64,000 bases of DNA. Origin: an uncultured Thermodesulfobacteriota bacterium. Its GTDB lineage: Bacteria; Desulfobacterota; JBBIRW01. The notes under the pieces were generated by a model that saw only the letters and a program-made list of their open reading frames with translations, did no database searches and was not told the origin of the DNA. The stretch's first letter is position 1. Every line of letters starts with the position of its first letter. Shown in pieces: positions 609 through 54,587 of the stretch. A program made the translations under genes and the position numbers. The stretch covers positions 263,734 to 327,733 of the forward strand of contig CAZDGM010000001.1 of assembly GCA_964505185.1 (NCBI GenBank). Direction: 5' to 3'.

Positions 609-687
609 ACTCACTAATATACCAGAAAATTCGGATGCTTGAATGTCCACCTATGAGGGTTTAAGTTATTTACTGAGGGAGGTTTTT

Positions 688-2145
688 ATGCCACATGCAC
701 TTCCATTTCGAAAAATAAAAGATTTTACCTATGAGATTCCGAAGGATTTCAAAGATGGGATGCGCGTTCCAGCCAGGATATATGTAACAGAGAAACTGAT
801 GAAAGAGATGGACTCGCAGGTCTTTGAACAGATAACAAATGTTGCAACACTTCCGGGTATTGTAAATTATGCCCTCTGTATGCCAGATGCACACTCCGGT
901 TATGGATTTCCCATCGGTGGTGTTGCTGCAATGGATCTGGAGGAAGGTGTAATATCACCAGGGGGTATTGGTTTTGATATAAACTGTGGAATGAGACTTG
1001 TTCTTACTTCCCTGACATTTGATGATATTAAATCAAGGATCAAAGAGATTGTTGATCTATTATTTGAAAGGGTTCCCTGTGGTGTGGGAAGCACCGGATT
1101 TCTGAAACTTAACAGAAATGAATTCATGGAGGTTCTTTCTGAAGGAGCAAGGTGGTGTGTAAGAAAGGGTTTTGGCTGGGAGGAGGATCTTGAAAGAACA
1201 GAAGAGGGGGGATGTATTCAGGGTGCGGATCCATCAAAGATCAGTGAAAAGGCAGTTGAAAGGGGAATAAATCAAATAGGAACCCTAGGATCAGGCAACC
1301 ACTATCTTGAGATTCAGATAGCAAAACCTGAAAACATATACGATGAAAGACTGGCAAAGATCTTCGGCATATCAATACCTGATCAGGTTGTAGTGATGTT
1401 TCACTGTGGTAGTCGTGGATTCGGGCATCAGGTTGCAACTGATTATCTTCAAATATTTCTTAAGGTTATGGAGAAGAAATACGGAATCAGCGTAAGGGAT
1501 AGGGAACTTGCCTGTGCACCCTTTGATTCTCCTGAAGGTCAGGATTATTTTGCTGCCATGAAGTGCGGGATAAATATGTCATTTGCAAACAGACAGGTAA
1601 TAACCCATAGAATAAGAGAGGTTTTTGAAAAGGTATTCAAGGAGGATGCAAAGAAGCTCGGGATGCAGATGGTTTACGATGTTTCACACAATACAGCAAA
1701 GCTTGAAAAACATTTTGTTAATGGAAAGGAGACGCAGCTTATTGTTCACAGAAAGGGAGCTACACGTGCCTTTGCTCCTGGAATGGAAGGGTTGCCTGAA
1801 ATCTACAGAGAAACAGGTCAGCCTGTTATTATTGGCGGGAGCATGGAGACAGGGAGCTATCTACTTGCAGGGATAAGTTCGGGGGCAAAGAGTTTCTTCT
1901 CAACAGCGCATGGTAGTGGAAGGACGATGAGCAGAACGAAGGCAAAGAAGTTATTTGAAGGAAGGGCTCTCCAGAGACAGATGGAAGAAAAGGGAATTTA
2001 CGTGAGAACGGCGTCCTTTTCAGGACTTGCTGAGGAAGCTGGTGCTGCTTACAAGAATATAGATGAAGTAGTTGATGCCACGGAGTTCGCAGGACTTTCA
2101 AAAAAGGTTGTGAGATTCATTCCAGTTGGAAACATCAAGGGTTAA
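688..2145 (+). CDS. rtcB: RNA-splicing ligase RtcB (3'-phosphate/5'-OH RNA ligase)
   Basis: The 500-aa frame carries RtcB hallmarks (MPDAHSGYGFPIGGV, GGIGFDINCGMRL, GSGNHYLE, HNTAKLE). Likely true start is ATG 688, preceded by AGGGAGG. The upstream ATG 643 has no RBS. The alignment to archaeal RtcB begins near Met16. Confidence 0.9.
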   Translation: MPHALPFRKIKDFTYEIPKDFKDGMRVPARIYVTEKLMKEMDSQVFEQITNVATLPGIVNYALCMPDAHSGYGFPIGGVAAMDLEEGVISPGGIGFDINCGMRLVLTSLTFDDIKSRIKEIVDLLFERVPCGVGSTGFLKLNRNEFMEVLSEGARWCVRKGFGWEEDLERTEEGGCIQGADPSKISEKAVERGINQIGTLGSGNHYLEIQIAKPENIYDERLAKIFGISIPDQVVVMFHCGSRGFGHQVATDYLQIFLKVMEKKYGISVRDRELACAPFDSPEGQDYFAAMKCGINMSFANRQVITHRIREVFEKVFKEDAKKLGMQMVYDVSHNTAKLEKHFVNGKETQLIVHRKGATRAFAPGMEGLPEIYRETGQPVIIGGSMETGSYLLAGISSGAKSFFSTAHGSGRTMSRTKAKKLFEGRALQRQMEEKGIYVRTASFSGLAEEAGAAYKNIDEVVDATEFAGLSKKVVRFIPVGNIKG

Positions 2146-2159
2146 ATTATTGTTTACAT

Positions 2160-3473
2160 ATGATCACAAAAACTCCTCTTACGCTGATAACGGGATATCT
2201 CGGCAGTGGCAAGACAACCCTTCTTAGAAATATCGTAAGGGATGCAAGGAAAAAGATTGCCATTGTCGTAAATGAATTCGGGGAGATCCCCATAGATAGC
2301 AAGGTTCTGGAGGGGAAGAATATCAGGATGGCTGAGCTCGCCGGAGGATGTGTATGCTGTTCACTATCAGGGGAATTTGAGGCAGCAGTTGAGGAGATAA
2401 TAAATGAAATAGGACCCGATATAATTTTTGTTGAGACGACTGGTCTTGCTGAACCGGATTCACTAATAGATATCATAGGTGAGGCATTAAAGATGGTGAA
2501 ACTTGACACAGTGGTCACTGTTGTTGATGCGGATGCCATGGTTAGATTTCCGGAAATAGGCTATACAGGGAGGATACAGATTGAATCGGCTGATGTAATT
2601 TTAATAAATAAGATAGATCTGGTCCATGAAGAGGATCTCTTACAGGTTGAGGAAAGGGTAAAGGAAATTAACAGAAGGGCAACCCTTTTCAGAACCTCTT
2701 TCTGCAATATAGATACAGAGCTTTTATCTGGGATGGGAATAGAGAGATATTTATCACATGCTGTTCATGCCCAACATGATATGGATTACTTTACTTTCTG
2801 TACAAATGAGATAATCAAAAGGGAAAGATTTGAGGAGATGGTAAAGGGCCTCTCTGGAAAGATATACAGGGCAAAGGGATTTGTAAAATTTTCCGATGGT
2901 TCCTACCTGTTCAATTATGTCTCTGATCGATGGGATTTTGAAGAATTTGAGTCAGAGGGTACGCGTCTTGTATTTATCGGTCACCGGGCTGGTCAAATAA
3001 AGGACGAGGTGATTTCTCAATTAGAAAGCATGAAATTGAAATTTGAGTACAGATTTCTTGAAGATCTGGCCACCGCGGATGTCGCATTTGAGGCAAAGGG
3101 TGATACGATTGAGGAACTTTTTATTTCCTCTGCGCTTGCAACAACAAATATTATGATACTTCAAACAGGTCAGATTGATCTTAAAGATAGAAGAGAGATA
3201 GAAATTGAGGCTGAAGAACTGGATCTTCTCCTTTTTAATCTTCTTCAGGAGATGATCTTTTTCAAAGATACAGAAAAACTGATCTTTGGAGAGTTTAATG
3301 TGAAAATTGGAAAGAAGGGCGATAAATGGATGCTCAGGATGAAGGCAGCCGGGGAAAGGATCAATCCGGAAAAACATATGCTTCATCTTGATGTGAAGGC
3401 AGTGACACTGCACATGCTTGAGGTGAGGAAAGATAATAATGGATGGATAGCTCATGTTATTCTTGATGTTTAG
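2160..3473 (+). CDS. Fusion protein: COG0523/CobW-type G3E GTPase (putative metallochaperone) N-terminal, archease C-terminal
   Basis: N-terminal part has P-loop GYLGSGKTTLL, VNEFGE, the GCVCC metal-binding motif and the CobW_C-like KGFVKFSDGSY...LVFIG. C-terminal ~146 aa align along their whole length with archease (ATADVAFEAKGDTIEELF...INPEKH...KAVTLH...GWIAHVILDV). Confidence 0.85.
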   Translation: MITKTPLTLITGYLGSGKTTLLRNIVRDARKKIAIVVNEFGEIPIDSKVLEGKNIRMAELAGGCVCCSLSGEFEAAVEEIINEIGPDIIFVETTGLAEPDSLIDIIGEALKMVKLDTVVTVVDADAMVRFPEIGYTGRIQIESADVILINKIDLVHEEDLLQVEERVKEINRRATLFRTSFCNIDTELLSGMGIERYLSHAVHAQHDMDYFTFCTNEIIKRERFEEMVKGLSGKIYRAKGFVKFSDGSYLFNYVSDRWDFEEFESEGTRLVFIGHRAGQIKDEVISQLESMKLKFEYRFLEDLATADVAFEAKGDTIEELFISSALATTNIMILQTGQIDLKDRREIEIEAEELDLLLFNLLQEMIFFKDTEKLIFGEFNVKIGKKGDKWMLRMKAAGERINPEKHMLHLDVKAVTLHMLEVRKDNNGWIAHVILDV

Positions 3474-3499: not shown

Positions 3500-5383
3500 A
3501 TGTGGCGGAAATTCGATAAGGCAGAAACCGTATCCCTTCCTGAAATTTACGAATCAGTGAAGATCCCCCATTACTGGAAATGGTGGAAGCGTCTCTTTGC
3601 TTTCCTTGGTCCTGCATATCTTGTTTCTGTGGGATACATGGATCCGGGTAACTGGGCGACGGATCTTGAAGGGGGAGCGAAATTTGGATACAGGCTCATA
3701 TGGGTTCTCCTTGCGAGCAATCTGATGGCTGTTTTGCTGCAAATGCTTTCTGCTCGTCTGGGTCTTGTCACGAGATGCGATCTCGCACAGGCATGTCGTG
3801 AAGCATATCCGCCTTTTGTATACTATCCTCTGTGGATCATCTGTGAACTTGCAATAGCTGCATGCGATCTCGCTGAAGTCCTTGGAACGGCGATAGGTTT
3901 GAATCTTCTTTTTGGGATTCCGCTTATAATCGGTGTCAGTTTAACAGCTCTTGATACAATCCTTCTCCTCTTTATACAGCGATACGGGATTCGCAAATTT
4001 GAAGGGATGATCCTCGGTCTCGTATTTGTCGTAGGTTGTTGCTTCGTTGTTGAAATCTTTCTTGCTAAACCTGACTTCAGATCAATTATAGGTGGTTTTA
4101 TTCCCACAATTGACAGAGAAAGCCTCTATGTTGCACTGGGCATGCTCGGGGCAACTGTTATGCCACACAACCTTTACCTTCATTCAGCGCTTGTTCAGAG
4201 CAGAGCAGTTGAGCGAACAGATAAGGGCATCCGGGCAGCAGTGCGCTTTAATCTTATAGATACATTTATTGCTCTCAATGCTGCTTTCTTTGTGAATTCA
4301 GCAATACTTGTTCTCTCATCTTCTGTTTTTTATTCTCGAGGTATTGAGGTGGTTGAGATTCAGCAGGCGCACGAACTTCTCTCACCACTGCTGGGAACAG
4401 GTCTTGCCTCTACTGCCTTTGCTGTTGCCCTTCTTGCTGCAGGTCAATCTTCGACACTCACAGGAACACTTGCAGGGCAGGTTGTGATGGAGGGGTTTAT
4501 CCGGATAAAGATTCAGCCATGGGCAAGAAGACTCATTTCTCGATTACTTGCGATCATTCCTGCAGTTATTGTTATTGCAATAAGCGGAAGCCATGGGACA
4601 TACAGGCTTCTTATACTGAGTCAGGTGATTCTCTCTTTGCAGCTTCCCTTTGCAATTGTTCCCCTTATCCAATTCACAAGTGATCGTGAATGGATGGGAA
4701 AATTTGTGAGCCCTCTATGGGTAAGGGTCCTTTCATGGCTTGTTGCACTTTTTATCATAAGTCTTAATGTCTGGCTTGTTTGGGTGACGGTGTCTGAATG
4801 GAGGATGAAAGCTATGTGGGTTGATTTTATAGTAATTCCAATTGGTGCATATTTGATGCTATTATTGGGGTATATGGGATTTGGACCGTTTATTAAGAAA
4901 TTATTAGAAAAGAAACCACCCTCTGTACCGGAACCCGTGCTACCATCCATTCAGGAGGACACTGGGTATGGGAAGATAGGGGTTGCTCTTGAGGTGAGGG
5001 AAACGGACCAAAAGATACTCAAGCATGCACTTGCCCTTGCAACGAGATACAATGCAGAGATTATTCTGATTCATATTGTTGAGAGTGCAACTGCTCAGGT
5101 CTGGGGCGGAACTGTGGAGGATAGGGAAAGAACAGAGGACGAGGATTATCTAATAAAACTTTCAGAAAAGATCAGGGCACAGGGAATAAGGGCGAGTTTC
5201 CGAATAGGATTTGGAAATGCAGCAAAAGGGGTTGTAAAAATAGCGAAAGAAGAGAATCTTGACCTTCTTGTCCTCGGGAGTCATGGCCACAAACATATAA
5301 AAGACTGGATATATGGTTCAACAGTTTCTGCTGTTCAACATGATATAGGTGATATACCCATCCTCGTTGTAAAAGGGACATAA
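3500..5383 (+). CDS. mntH: NRAMP-family divalent metal (Mn2+/Fe2+) transporter MntH fused to a C-terminal universal stress protein (UspA) domain
   Basis: GYMDPGNWATDLEGG (DPGN motif) and 11-12 TM helices. The C-terminal ~140 aa have the Usp fold signature (ILIHIVES..., LLVLGSHGH..., ILVV). Confidence 0.85.
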   Translation: MWRKFDKAETVSLPEIYESVKIPHYWKWWKRLFAFLGPAYLVSVGYMDPGNWATDLEGGAKFGYRLIWVLLASNLMAVLLQMLSARLGLVTRCDLAQACREAYPPFVYYPLWIICELAIAACDLAEVLGTAIGLNLLFGIPLIIGVSLTALDTILLLFIQRYGIRKFEGMILGLVFVVGCCFVVEIFLAKPDFRSIIGGFIPTIDRESLYVALGMLGATVMPHNLYLHSALVQSRAVERTDKGIRAAVRFNLIDTFIALNAAFFVNSAILVLSSSVFYSRGIEVVEIQQAHELLSPLLGTGLASTAFAVALLAAGQSSTLTGTLAGQVVMEGFIRIKIQPWARRLISRLLAIIPAVIVIAISGSHGTYRLLILSQVILSLQLPFAIVPLIQFTSDREWMGKFVSPLWVRVLSWLVALFIISLNVWLVWVTVSEWRMKAMWVDFIVIPIGAYLMLLLGYMGFGPFIKKLLEKKPPSVPEPVLPSIQEDTGYGKIGVALEVRETDQKILKHALALATRYNAEIILIHIVESATAQVWGGTVEDRERTEDEDYLIKLSEKIRAQGIRASFRIGFGNAAKGVVKIAKEENLDLLVLGSHGHKHIKDWIYGSTVSAVQHDIGDIPILVVKGT

Positions 5384-44438: not shown

Positions 44439-44558
44439 CTTTTCCTTGCAATTTAGGTTTTCTTGGATTTAAATAGAGAAAAATAGAACCTTTCAAAGTC
44501 TTACGGGAAGCAAGCGGGCATTTAAGCCCGGAGGAATCCCTGGTTCTTTGGAGGTATT

Positions 44559-44873
44559 TTGGAGGAAGGTATGCCAACCAAACTTTATGTAGGTAACCTC
44601 TCTTTTAAAGTAACAGAGAGTGAGCTTCAGGAATTATTTCAGAAAGTAGGAGAGGTGAGATCAGTAAAAATCATAACGGATCGCTACACAGGTCAAAGCC
44701 GTGGCTTTGGATTTGTCGAAATGGCAAATGCTGAGGATGCAAGTAAGGCTATCTCCGAATTGAACGGAAAGTCATTTAAAGAGAGACAGATAATCGTTAA
44801 CGAGGCAAGACCGGAGAGGGAAGACAGAAGGTCAGGCAGAAGAGAAGGGAAAGGGAAGGGCAGGAGATATTAA
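44559..44873 (+). CDS. RRM-type RNA-binding protein (RNP-1/RNP-2), Gly/Arg-rich tail
   Basis: KLYVGNLSF (RNP-2). RGFGFVEM (RNP-1). C-terminal RRSGRREGKGKGRRY. Confidence 0.85.
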   Translation: MEEGMPTKLYVGNLSFKVTESELQELFQKVGEVRSVKIITDRYTGQSRGFGFVEMANAEDASKAISELNGKSFKERQIIVNEARPEREDRRSGRREGKGKGRRY

Positions 44874-44909: not shown

Positions 44910-46106
44910 TTGAAATTTTGTCCAGAAATTAAAGGCCCCGGTATCTGGGGAAAAGATCAGCGACATATAGTTATGTTCAGAATCATTGAGAAGTATGTTG
45001 ATATCTTACCATCTCAAAATGGAGAATTTTTTGCACATCTTGCACAGATCCCATGTAGCCTTAAGGTAAAGGATTTTTACTGGAAGATTGAGGATCCCGA
45101 ATCCCACTGGCATTGCATGAAATCCATTCTTCAGATAATATCGCAATGTGAAAAAGGAAAGGATTTTCTGAACTTTGTTATTTTTCCAGAAGCATCTGTT
45201 CCACATCTATTTATAAAGGATTTCATTGAATTTGCGAGAAAAGATTTAAGGAAAAACAGTATTGTCATAGCAGGTATTGAACATATCTCCCTCTATGAGT
45301 ATGAAAATCTTCTTGAGGAGTTTGCGATCGATAATTGTGAGGCACTTACTGAGGTAAGAAGGGATGCTGAGTCTGAAGAAAAAGAAAAGCCGGTTAACTG
45401 CTGTATGATAATAGTCAAGGAAGTAAATGATAACTTTCATATTTTCTTTGAAGCAAAAACACATCCATTTAGAGGTGAGGAACATATAAGCCATTTTATA
45501 GATCTCTACCGCGGAAAACATATATATCTATTCAGATCGGAGCAGTATTCCTTCAATTTTATAGTCCTCCTGTGTTTCGATTATGTATATAGAGATTTGA
45601 GATATTCAAATATTCAGACTATAATCGAAAGGGCTAATAATCTATTTTTTGATGAAAGGCAGGATCTTGATCTCCTGATAATAATACAGAACAATCCAAA
45701 ACCAGAGCATAAGGCTTTTATCGACACAGTTGCTGGATTTTATGGAGAATTTCTCAGCTATAATCCTGGTGTAAGGAATGCATTAACCATTTTCTTGAAT
45801 ACATCGGGCGAGGTTTATCCTGAGGAAAGCAATCTATATGGTTATAGTTCTGTTTGTTTTAATGAAAGATTTAAACTAAGGGATATAAATACAGCAGAGT
45901 ATTCAACAGATGATTTCTATGGGGCAAGGGTCTGCAGGGTAAGATTTGGAAGGAACACAAGGCTTTATCTATTAAAATTGATACTTGAGCACGAGATTGA
46001 TCCGAGGACAGTAAGGATCCCAATAAGGGTTATCGATATCTATAAACAGGAGGATGGAAGGTGGAGAAAGATGCTTGTTGATGAGATTATCTATGGAAAA
46101 AAATGA
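44910..46106 (+). CDS. Nitrilase-superfamily (carbon-nitrogen hydrolase) fold protein with N- and C-terminal extensions; function unknown
   Basis: FVIFPEASVP (catalytic Glu context), EAKTHPF (catalytic Lys context, cf. YrKiHLF) and IVLLCFDYVY (catalytic Cys context, cf. ICyDlrFPE), in the right order and spacing for the E-K-C triad. Confidence 0.5.
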   Translation: MKFCPEIKGPGIWGKDQRHIVMFRIIEKYVDILPSQNGEFFAHLAQIPCSLKVKDFYWKIEDPESHWHCMKSILQIISQCEKGKDFLNFVIFPEASVPHLFIKDFIEFARKDLRKNSIVIAGIEHISLYEYENLLEEFAIDNCEALTEVRRDAESEEKEKPVNCCMIIVKEVNDNFHIFFEAKTHPFRGEEHISHFIDLYRGKHIYLFRSEQYSFNFIVLLCFDYVYRDLRYSNIQTIIERANNLFFDERQDLDLLIIIQNNPKPEHKAFIDTVAGFYGEFLSYNPGVRNALTIFLNTSGEVYPEESNLYGYSSVCFNERFKLRDINTAEYSTDDFYGARVCRVRFGRNTRLYLLKLILEHEIDPRTVRIPIRVIDIYKQEDGRWRKMLVDEIIYGKK

Positions 46107-46572
46107 TATATCCCTTCTTGAAGATAAGATAAAATATTATTTTCATAACAGAGAACTCCTTCATCAGTGTCTTACACACCCATCGTATTCAAATGAAAAT
46201 CCTTCGAGCAAGAGCAACAGGCGACTTGAATTTTTAGGCGATGCTGTTCTTAATAGCATAGTGACAATAATTCTTTACAAGATATTCCCAGGTCTTCGGG
46301 AGGGGGCCTTGAGTTATATGAGATCAATGCTCGTTAGTAAACAGGAATTGTTTGAGATAGGTAAATCTATCTCCCTTCAGGAATTCATATTTCTTGGAAA
46401 GGGTGAAGAAAAAACGGATGGAAGAAATAAGATATCCATTGTTGCTGGTTCACTTGAGGCATTAATAGGAGCGGTTTTCCTCGATGGTGGTTTTGAAAGG
46501 GTCTTTGAAGTTGTAAAGCATCTTTACAATGAAAGGGTAGAACGCATCCTATATAAGGAAAAAATCGAGTAA
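46093..46572 (+). CDS. RNase III catalytic-domain protein lacking a dsRNA-binding domain (159 aa)
   Basis: NRRLEFLGDAVL (RNase III signature) and EALIGAVFLDGG. The protein ends about 25 aa after the catalytic domain. ATG 46093 overlaps the upstream gene by 14 nt. Confidence 0.75.
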   Translation: MEKNDISLLEDKIKYYFHNRELLHQCLTHPSYSNENPSSKSNRRLEFLGDAVLNSIVTIILYKIFPGLREGALSYMRSMLVSKQELFEIGKSISLQEFIFLGKGEEKTDGRNKISIVAGSLEALIGAVFLDGGFERVFEVVKHLYNERVERILYKEKIE

Positions 46573-48156: not shown

Positions 48157-48345
48157 ATGTCTGACCAGAGGGAGATAATTCTCGATCTTCTTACAATGAT
48201 TGGGATTAGCTGTAATACCTGTAAAAAGGCACTTTACATTGAGCCTCTTCCTAAGAATATAATAGTTGGAAATCTTGACTGCATCATTAAAATAACAGAT
48301 GTTATAAAAGAGGCCCTTCAGATTCATCCGGCCTCCAGAGAGTAA
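48157..48345 (+). CDS. Small hypothetical protein (62 aa)
   Basis: Strong RBS AAGGGGGAA 7 nt upstream of ATG. Sits in the gap between the regulator and the FabI-like gene. Confidence 0.4.
   Translation: MSDQREIILDLLTMIGISCNTCKKALYIEPLPKNIIVGNLDCIIKITDVIKEALQIHPASRE

Positions 48346-54463: not shown

Positions 54464-54587
<124 letters not shown>

Follow-up and report, generated by a model that had tools for sequence, protein, structure and literature searches.

The window analysed here, a stretch of 64,000 nucleotides (64 kb) from contig CAZDGM010000001.1 of an uncultured Thermodesulfobacteriota bacterium, carries two overlapping genes on its forward strand, the first of which encodes a divergent nitrilase-fold protein (the NIT-like protein) and the second a ribonuclease III (RNase III) nuclease domain without the double-stranded RNA-binding domain (dsRBD). 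A first-pass annotation, made by a model from the sequence, had proposed that these genes form an uncharacterised two-gene module for RNA processing or RNA targeting, and their distribution in other genomes does not bear this out. On balance, and with little better than even confidence, we read them as encoding two independent enzymes within one transcription and translation unit of a single, phylogenetically isolated 'deltaproteobacterial' lineage; the pair looks like a local operon arrangement rather than a conserved RNA-targeting module. The NIT-like gene would then be the local orthologue of a family of about 385 residues, displaced from its arginine-operon context, and the RNase III would be the canonical bacterial enzyme with its dsRBD cleanly removed at the linker.

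Conservation of the gene pair

Relatives of the NIT-like protein are encoded in at least 282 species-level genomes, and our neighbourhood survey covers 80 loci from species-representative genomes out of these 282. An RNase III gene lies beside the NIT-like gene in only one of the 79 other genomes, that of a 95%-identical relative (L001). Outside L001 the pair recurs just in the close lineage L081/L082, where it shows the same overlap, with 74% identity between the RNase III proteins, and where the order of about 10 flanking genes is that of the window (GltS-like, DksA, RRM, NIT-like, RNase III, sigma-54 activator, SDR and ICL). Because the whole region is syntenic, the adjacency in L081/L082 is inherited and uninformative on function. 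The first-pass annotation had named two signs that would together tell against its module, a missing CN_hydrolase score for the larger protein and a pair that other genomes do not keep as neighbours, and both are seen. Homologues of the sigma-54 activator were considered as a guide to the ancestral locus, and the next relatives drop to 39-40% identity and have unrelated neighbours; without synteny at this level, the ancestral state of the locus is not reconstructible.

Gene models, overlap and selection

Three lineages enter the comparisons below, namely the window, L001 (95%/89% identity for the NIT-like and RNase III proteins, respectively) and L081 (89%/74%), and all coordinates refer to the 64-kb window unless a locus is named. 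The list of open reading frames (ORFs) contains a long ORF at 44910-46106 (+), overlapped by a second that begins at 46054 or 46093 and ends at 46572 (+). The first of these had been described as a 398-residue protein with unique N- and C-terminal extensions. The ORF is indeed present, but the start is not upheld: homologues of the NIT-like protein all begin at the Met encoded by ATG 44973, and the TTG codon at 44910 is not conserved, being CTG in L081, which among the syntenic relatives is the most distant. We therefore take the protein to have 377 residues rather than 398. Nor do the extensions stand, as homologues align over 97-100% of the length. For the RNase III gene, ATG 46093 is the likely start, giving 159 residues, because it is kept in the other lineages whereas ATG 46054, which would give a version of 172 residues, is ATA in L001.

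The reported overlap of 14 nucleotides (nt) is seen in all three lineages. It runs from ATG 46093 to TGA 46104-46106 (ATGGAAAAAAATGA in the window), and the same ATG...TGA geometry is found in L001 and L081, where the last sense codons differ from those of the window. We also considered a programmed frameshift or transcriptional slippage that would fuse both ORFs at the A7 run at 46097-46103. This run is reduced to A5 in L001 and L081, so that there is no conserved slippery site, and the idea was rejected.

The ratio of nonsynonymous to synonymous substitution rates (dN/dS) across the three lineages is 0.04-0.07 for the NIT-like gene and 0.07-0.18 for the RNase III gene, and these low values indicate that both genes are real and under purifying selection, and more than chance ORFs. 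Synonymous sites are near saturation (dS 1.2-2.5), and the RNase III protein has accumulated about 3 times more amino-acid change than its neighbours.

Fold and putative active site of the NIT-like protein

No Pfam or NCBIfam model matches the NIT-like protein. The Pfam model for carbon-nitrogen hydrolases (CN_hydrolase, PF00795) gives no match at E<=1, and just one of 22 family members tested against it reaches E=0.13; likewise, a profile of the family finds none of the PDB sequences at E<=10. Because the CN_hydrolase profile misses the protein, its membership of the nitrilase superfamily rests on the predicted fold, on weak matches to models of RT-nitrilase defence proteins, and on invariant Glu, Lys and Cys residues. 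An AlphaFold 2 (AF2) model built on 86 homologues has a predicted local distance difference test score (pLDDT) of 86 and a predicted template-modelling (TM) score of 0.90. It shows the alpha-beta-beta-alpha sandwich of the nitrilase superfamily, and all 13 Foldseek matches in the PDB at E<=1e-3 belong to that superfamily (E 1.7e-7 to 9.5e-4, probability 1.00, TM-scores 0.35-0.46, identity 8-12%). They include aliphatic amidase from Geobacillus pallidus (4gyl/4kzf), N-carbamoyl-D-amino-acid amidohydrolase (1erz, 6le2), vanin-1 (4cyy) and a nitrilase. The earlier assignment as a carbon-nitrogen hydrolase thus stands at the level of the superfamily fold and falls at the level of the Pfam profile.

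The family alignment of 86 sequences contains 43 invariant positions, all of which are kept in the window protein, and Glu73, Lys162, Glu169/Glu170 and Cys201 are among them. Lys162 follows model strand 155-161 and is accompanied by the invariant residues His164, Pro165, Glu169 and Glu170; Cys201, with invariant Asp203 and Tyr204 nearby, ends strand 195-201 and occupies the nucleophile-elbow position of the model. In the predicted structure, each member of the Glu-Lys-Cys set, together with the second Glu, would lie at the C-terminal end of a strand, as in nitrilases. As far as fold and active site go, the Glu/Lys/Cys catalytic contexts claimed for this protein thus hold. When the family was aligned using hhalign with one D-carbamoylase sequence, the Glu motif alone was brought together, FVIFPE with FIVFPE, the latter being the Glu47 motif of that enzyme.

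Like the nitrilase-superfamily amidases listed above, then, the NIT-like protein has the predicted fold, invariant Glu, Lys and Cys residues at matching strand ends, and a GEE motif. Unlike them, it lacks a CN_hydrolase match, reaches TM-scores of only 0.35-0.46, and has a conserved, beta-rich C-terminal region (approximately residues 300-377) with invariant residues specific to the family. The earlier call of a nitrilase-type Glu/Lys/Cys hydrolase, to judge from the model, is essentially right. By analogy with this fold, Cys201 would attack a non-peptide C-N bond (amide or carbamoyl) through a thioester intermediate, with Glu73 acting as the base and Lys162 and Glu169/Glu170 completing the tetrad, and the substrate would most likely be a small amide or carbamoyl metabolite.

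The RNase III protein lacks a dsRBD

The second protein matches Ribonucleas_3_3 (PF14622, 2.3e-34) and Ribonuclease_3 (PF00636, 7.5e-22), and the motifs NRRLEFLGDAVL and EALIGAVFLDGG are both present in its ORF. TIGR02191, the full-length RNase III model, scores 163.2 bits against a cutoff of 166.25, and the match covers profile positions 1-144 of 219; hence the protein lacks the dsRBD, and, unlike full-length relatives, its 159 residues give no match to PF00035. That it comprises an RNase III nuclease domain alone, as had been noticed in the first-pass annotation, is thus supported, as is the location of the gene outside the era/lepB context. The protein ends about 27 residues past FLDGG, at the linker, and because only 65 nt separate its stop codon from the next gene the dsRBD is cleanly absent and not frameshifted.

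The remaining domain resembles class-1 Rnc closely. It is 41% identical to Escherichia coli Rnc, its AF2 model (pLDDT 93.6) superimposes on the E. coli RNase III nuclease domain in 7r97 with a TM-score of 0.86 and a root-mean-square deviation of 0.9 Å, the signature RLEFLGD is kept, and the equivalents of the core acidic residues E41, D45, E65, E100 and E117 are retained. It differs from class-1 Rnc in ending at the linker, in its gene not lying beside era or lepB, and at two further positions. The equivalent of E38 is R or M in this clade alone (R in the window), and the equivalent of D114 is G. Since G also occupies the D114 position in 8 of 42 full-length relatives, we do not accept this substitution as firm proof of catalytic death, and the enzyme is probably active. 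It would still dimerise and cut double-stranded RNA, with substrate binding that is weaker and less autonomous. Engineered E. coli RNase III without its dsRBD still cleaves substrates accurately in vitro.

Relatives of this form are rare. A collection of 5.8 billion proteins yields three without a dsRBD (100%, 89% and 74% identity), and the next relatives are full-length Rnc proteins at 45-50% identity; the JGI metagenomes return no dsRBD-less relative and canonical RNase III alone, at no more than 41% identity. As a separate observation, the best non-truncated relative is P0124 (L085 354-1073), a protein of 239 residues encoded in an rnc-smc-ftsY-ffh context, in which the nuclease domain is partially duplicated internally (repeated GKGEEATGGR...EAVIAAIYLDGG) and the dsRBD is degenerate or missing.

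Mini-III (MrnC/YazC) is an RNase III that naturally lacks the dsRBD; it occurs in Firmicutes, cyanobacteria and plastids and uses ribosomal protein L3 as a helper. The window protein is similar in having a nuclease domain only, with a length in the range of about 140-160 residues, and in being presumably homodimeric; unlike Mini-III, it has the canonical signature RLEFLGD. Against one B. subtilis Mini-III sequence it gives only a local match of 22 residues (E 0.007). Identity with Mini-III was rejected, there being no Mini-III chain among the PDB sequence matches (E<=1e-3) or the top 50 fold matches. Because the window protein is not a Mini-III member, its loss of the dsRBD is independent of Mini-III. 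What is new in the pair is modest: a class-1 RNase III that has lost its dsRBD naturally and independently, and a nitrilase-fold protein of an unnamed family that has been displaced.

The 159-residue protein may be a paralogue, or it may be the only copy. If it were the only RNase III of the lineage, a relocated housekeeping rnc without its former dsRBD, its adjacency to the amidase gene would be incidental. We regard this as unlikely, even though several observations fit it: the protein is closest to canonical Rnc (163 bits for TIGR02191, 41% identity, core catalytic residues kept), its gene is under purifying selection, the dsRBD-less E. coli enzyme is accurate in vitro, and neither a second nor a canonical rnc gene is found in the 64-kb window. 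These 64 kb, however, are the visible part of a contig of at least 482 kb, and a canonical rnc elsewhere is entirely possible. Moreover, evolution faster than that of neighbouring genes is more typical of a secondary copy, and to our knowledge nearly all bacteria keep a full-length rnc. Were this protein nevertheless the genome's only rnc, it would illustrate the extent to which a bacterial RNase III tolerates reduction in vivo.

The NIT-like family and its argG-argH setting

All 333 homologues of the NIT-like protein, whose family has a typical length of about 385 residues, are named 'hypothetical'. In the survey, argG lies upstream of the family gene (X) in 52 of 66 loci and argH downstream in 56 of 71, the commonest order being argB-argD-argF-argG-(NUDIX)-X-argH-(fn3 lipoprotein)-dapA-dapB. 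In most loci a small MutT-like NUDIX gene, whose product falls below every NCBIfam cutoff, lies directly upstream of X; the NUDIX-X pair persists without arg genes in some loci (L013, L033 and L079), and NC10 loci have argG-X-argH without the NUDIX gene. Other contexts are miscellaneous (Usp, birA and lspA-lgt). The argG-X-argH arrangement occurs, among loci L002-L080, in Geobacterales, Desulfuromonadales, NC10 and Anaeromyxobacter (for example at L014 4099-8563 and L002 284-4634). A neighbour-joining tree of the family largely follows taxonomy, with the window clade as one long isolated branch.

By full-length homology, at 42-47% identity, the window protein belongs to this family. Unlike other members, those of the window clade have no argG, argH or NUDIX neighbours (arg and NUDIX genes are absent from the whole 64-kb window) and their genes overlap that for RNase III. 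The usual position of the family, between argG and argH and after a NUDIX gene, makes a small nitrogen metabolite connected with arginine or nucleotide metabolism its most likely substrate. Our literature search found nothing specific on this argG-argH gene.

The same distribution admits a reading in which the amidase-fold family is not an arginine enzyme at all and always partners a protein directed at nucleic acids or nucleotides, mostly NUDIX and, in the window, RNase III together with the RRM protein. We think this very doubtful. If true, the window would hold a new kind of RNase III holoenzyme. Its nitrilase-fold component, a relative of immune effector domains, would either stand in for the dsRBD or couple the cleavage of RNA to the hydrolysis of a modification that is amide-linked to RNA or a nucleotide.

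Distant relatives in immune-type proteins

The closest sequence relationship that we found outside the family is to the N-terminal approximately 270 residues of LmuA. In PADLOC, residues 33-301 of the NIT-like protein match positions 36-308 of the 604 in the LmuA model PDLC03850 (5.6e-34), and all 22 family members tested match this model. When 1.84 billion cluster representatives were searched exhaustively with a profile, 409 relatives of the NIT-like domain came to light. Only 4 of the 409 are full-length stand-alone clusters; most of the others have about 590-620 residues, the size of LmuA, and in the remainder, which are longer, the domain is followed by NB-ARC, NACHT or nSTAND nucleoside triphosphatases with TPR or HEAT repeats. 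P0393, P0394, P0396, P0398, P0409 and many matches of about 600 residues carry the amidase-fold domain at the N-terminus. Given these 600-residue and STAND architectures, the domain appears to be a recurrent N-terminal module of conflict-system proteins and, judged by homology, is a recurrent putative effector domain of immune-type proteins. In RT-nitrilase proteins the nitrilase domain acts as an abortive-infection effector of unknown substrate and unknown chemistry (PMC13275509). We found nothing specific in the literature on amidase or nitrilase effectors of Lamassu. None of the distant relatives found joins the domain to an RNase III, RRM or dsRBD domain.

It is extremely unlikely, in our view, that the pair is an anti-phage or conflict system in which an LmuA-like amidase effector is combined with a nuclease. 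The homology to LmuA across the family, to the N-termini of LmuA-sized and NB-ARC/NACHT/TPR STAND proteins, and more weakly to RT-nitrilase defence proteins, would be expected of such a system. The NIT-like protein, however, shares with Lamassu LmuA only this N-terminal homology, and differs in being a stand-alone protein of 377 residues with its own C-terminal region and without the C-terminal part of LmuA. There is no LmuB/SMC-type gene in the annotated surroundings, where the neighbours encode RRM, RNase III and sigma-54 activator proteins, and no STAND or RT partner either. In addition, the neighbours are ordinary chromosomal genes in stable synteny, the stand-alone family is inherited vertically inside arginine operons, and the RNase III protein has no match in PADLOC.

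Genes surrounding the pair

As first described, the pair lies downstream of genes for an RRM protein and a DksA/TraR-type protein (Table 1). The latter falls below the NCBIfam DksA cutoffs, and the former, at 118 bits, exceeds the cutoff of 100 for NF058537 ('RNA-binding regulator'). The 99-nt spacer between the RRM and NIT-like genes contains neither a terminator nor significant structure (z = -0.45). At 44528-44551 (+), shortly before the start of the RRM gene, the 5' leader contains a terminator-like hairpin followed by a T-run, which may serve to regulate the RNA-binding protein. On the other side, the sigma-54 activator gene begins 65 nt downstream of the RNase III gene and is syntenic in L001 and L081.

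Table 1. Positions in the window of the overlapping genes, their immediate neighbours and the putative active-site residues of the NIT-like protein.
Feature	Position	Strand	Basis
DksA/TraR-type C4 zinc-finger protein, 119 aa	44079..44438	+	Pfam zf-dskA_traR 2e-16
RRM-type RNA-binding protein, 100 aa from ATG	44571..44873	+	Pfam RRM_1 2e-25
NIT-like amidohydrolase, 377 aa	44973..46106	+	ATG common to homologues, fold model, dN/dS
Glu73 codon in VIFPE, putative catalytic general base	45189..45191	+	Invariant in 86 sequences, after strand 66-70
Lys162 in EAKTHPFRGEE with Glu169/Glu170, putative Lys and fourth (Glu) member of the tetrad	45456..45482	+	Invariance
Cys201 codon in LLCFDY, putative nucleophile	45573..45575	+	Invariant in 86 sequences, model strand
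Overlap of NIT-like stop and RNase III start, 14 nt	46093..46106	+	Read from sequence
RNase III nuclease domain, 159 aa, without dsRBD	46093..46572	+	Pfam, TIGR02191, AF2, dN/dS
PilZ/Zn-ribbon/sigma-54 activator, 490 aa	46638..48110	+	Pfam PilZ, Sigma54_activat, AAA_lid_14, HTH_8

The wider surroundings consist of ordinary chromosomal genes, and a defence-island context was rejected on this ground. Between the sigma-54 activator and SDR genes, an ORF of 62 residues with no Pfam match (48157-48345, +) is called in all three syntenic lineages (the window, L081 12058-12246 and L084 5065-5253). Elsewhere in the window, a lone full-length 5S rRNA gene (54471-54583, +; 99.9 bits) lies in an intergenic gap of about 660 nt flanked by an aldolase-like gene and a pilus/type II secretion system cluster, with a TTGACA-like box about 35 nt upstream; no 16S rRNA, 23S rRNA or tRNA gene is found in the 64 kb. 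Positions 643-3473 (+) encode an RtcB RNA ligase (643-2145) followed by a CobW-type GTPase-Archease fusion (PF02492 and PF07683 with PF01951), which unusually joins the RtcB activator to a metallochaperone-like GTPase, and positions 3500-5383 (+) encode an Nramp metal transporter that carries a universal stress protein (Usp) domain fused to its C-terminus.

Independent enzymes or a recent partnership

A joint role, as in the first-pass annotation, could be that of a lineage-specific module. The RNase III would rely on the amidase-fold protein translated with it, on the RRM protein or on both for substrate recognition or regulation, and the whole would make a new RNA-processing holoenzyme. An RNase III without its own dsRBD, a 14-nt overlap conserved in three lineages, an RRM gene 99 nt upstream across a spacer free of terminator-like sites and significant structure, and a clade-specific change of E38 to R or M with roughly threefold faster evolution, as might accompany a changed role, are all consistent with it. 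Nevertheless, co-occurrence is absent outside one narrow and wholly syntenic clade, the amidase family keeps its full catalytic set and is conserved over its entire length, its orthologues in arg operons work without RNase III, and no fusions to RNase III, RRM or dsRBD domains are seen among distant relatives. We consider such a module quite improbable.

We therefore return to two independent enzymes as the reading that we favour. The overlap brings about translational coupling and hence matched expression, and is no proof of a shared function. Several points weigh against this reading. There is a local RNA theme, with the RRM gene directly upstream of the NIT-like gene, and by analogy with Mini-III and L3 an RNase III without a dsRBD plausibly needs a helper protein. 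NUDIX, the usual partner of the NIT-like family, could act on nucleotides or RNA ends. Moreover, the overlap has been kept despite near-saturated synonymous sites, so that co-expression is at least tolerated and possibly selected. Finally, the case for independence rests on absent co-occurrence elsewhere, and a newly evolved partnership within the lineage is compatible with that.

As the proposal of an RNA-targeting module does not hold up, the direct importance of the pair is modest, and two by-products are worth keeping, namely the unnamed NIT-like family and the dsRBD-less RNase III. Of greater interest than anything in the window is the argG-NUDIX-X-argH family beyond it, with its relationship to immune effector domains. 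Here an unassigned gene in a textbook biosynthetic operon is kin to the effector domains of Lamassu and STAND proteins, and the family may offer a way in to the chemistry of the 'amidase/nitrilase' immune effectors.

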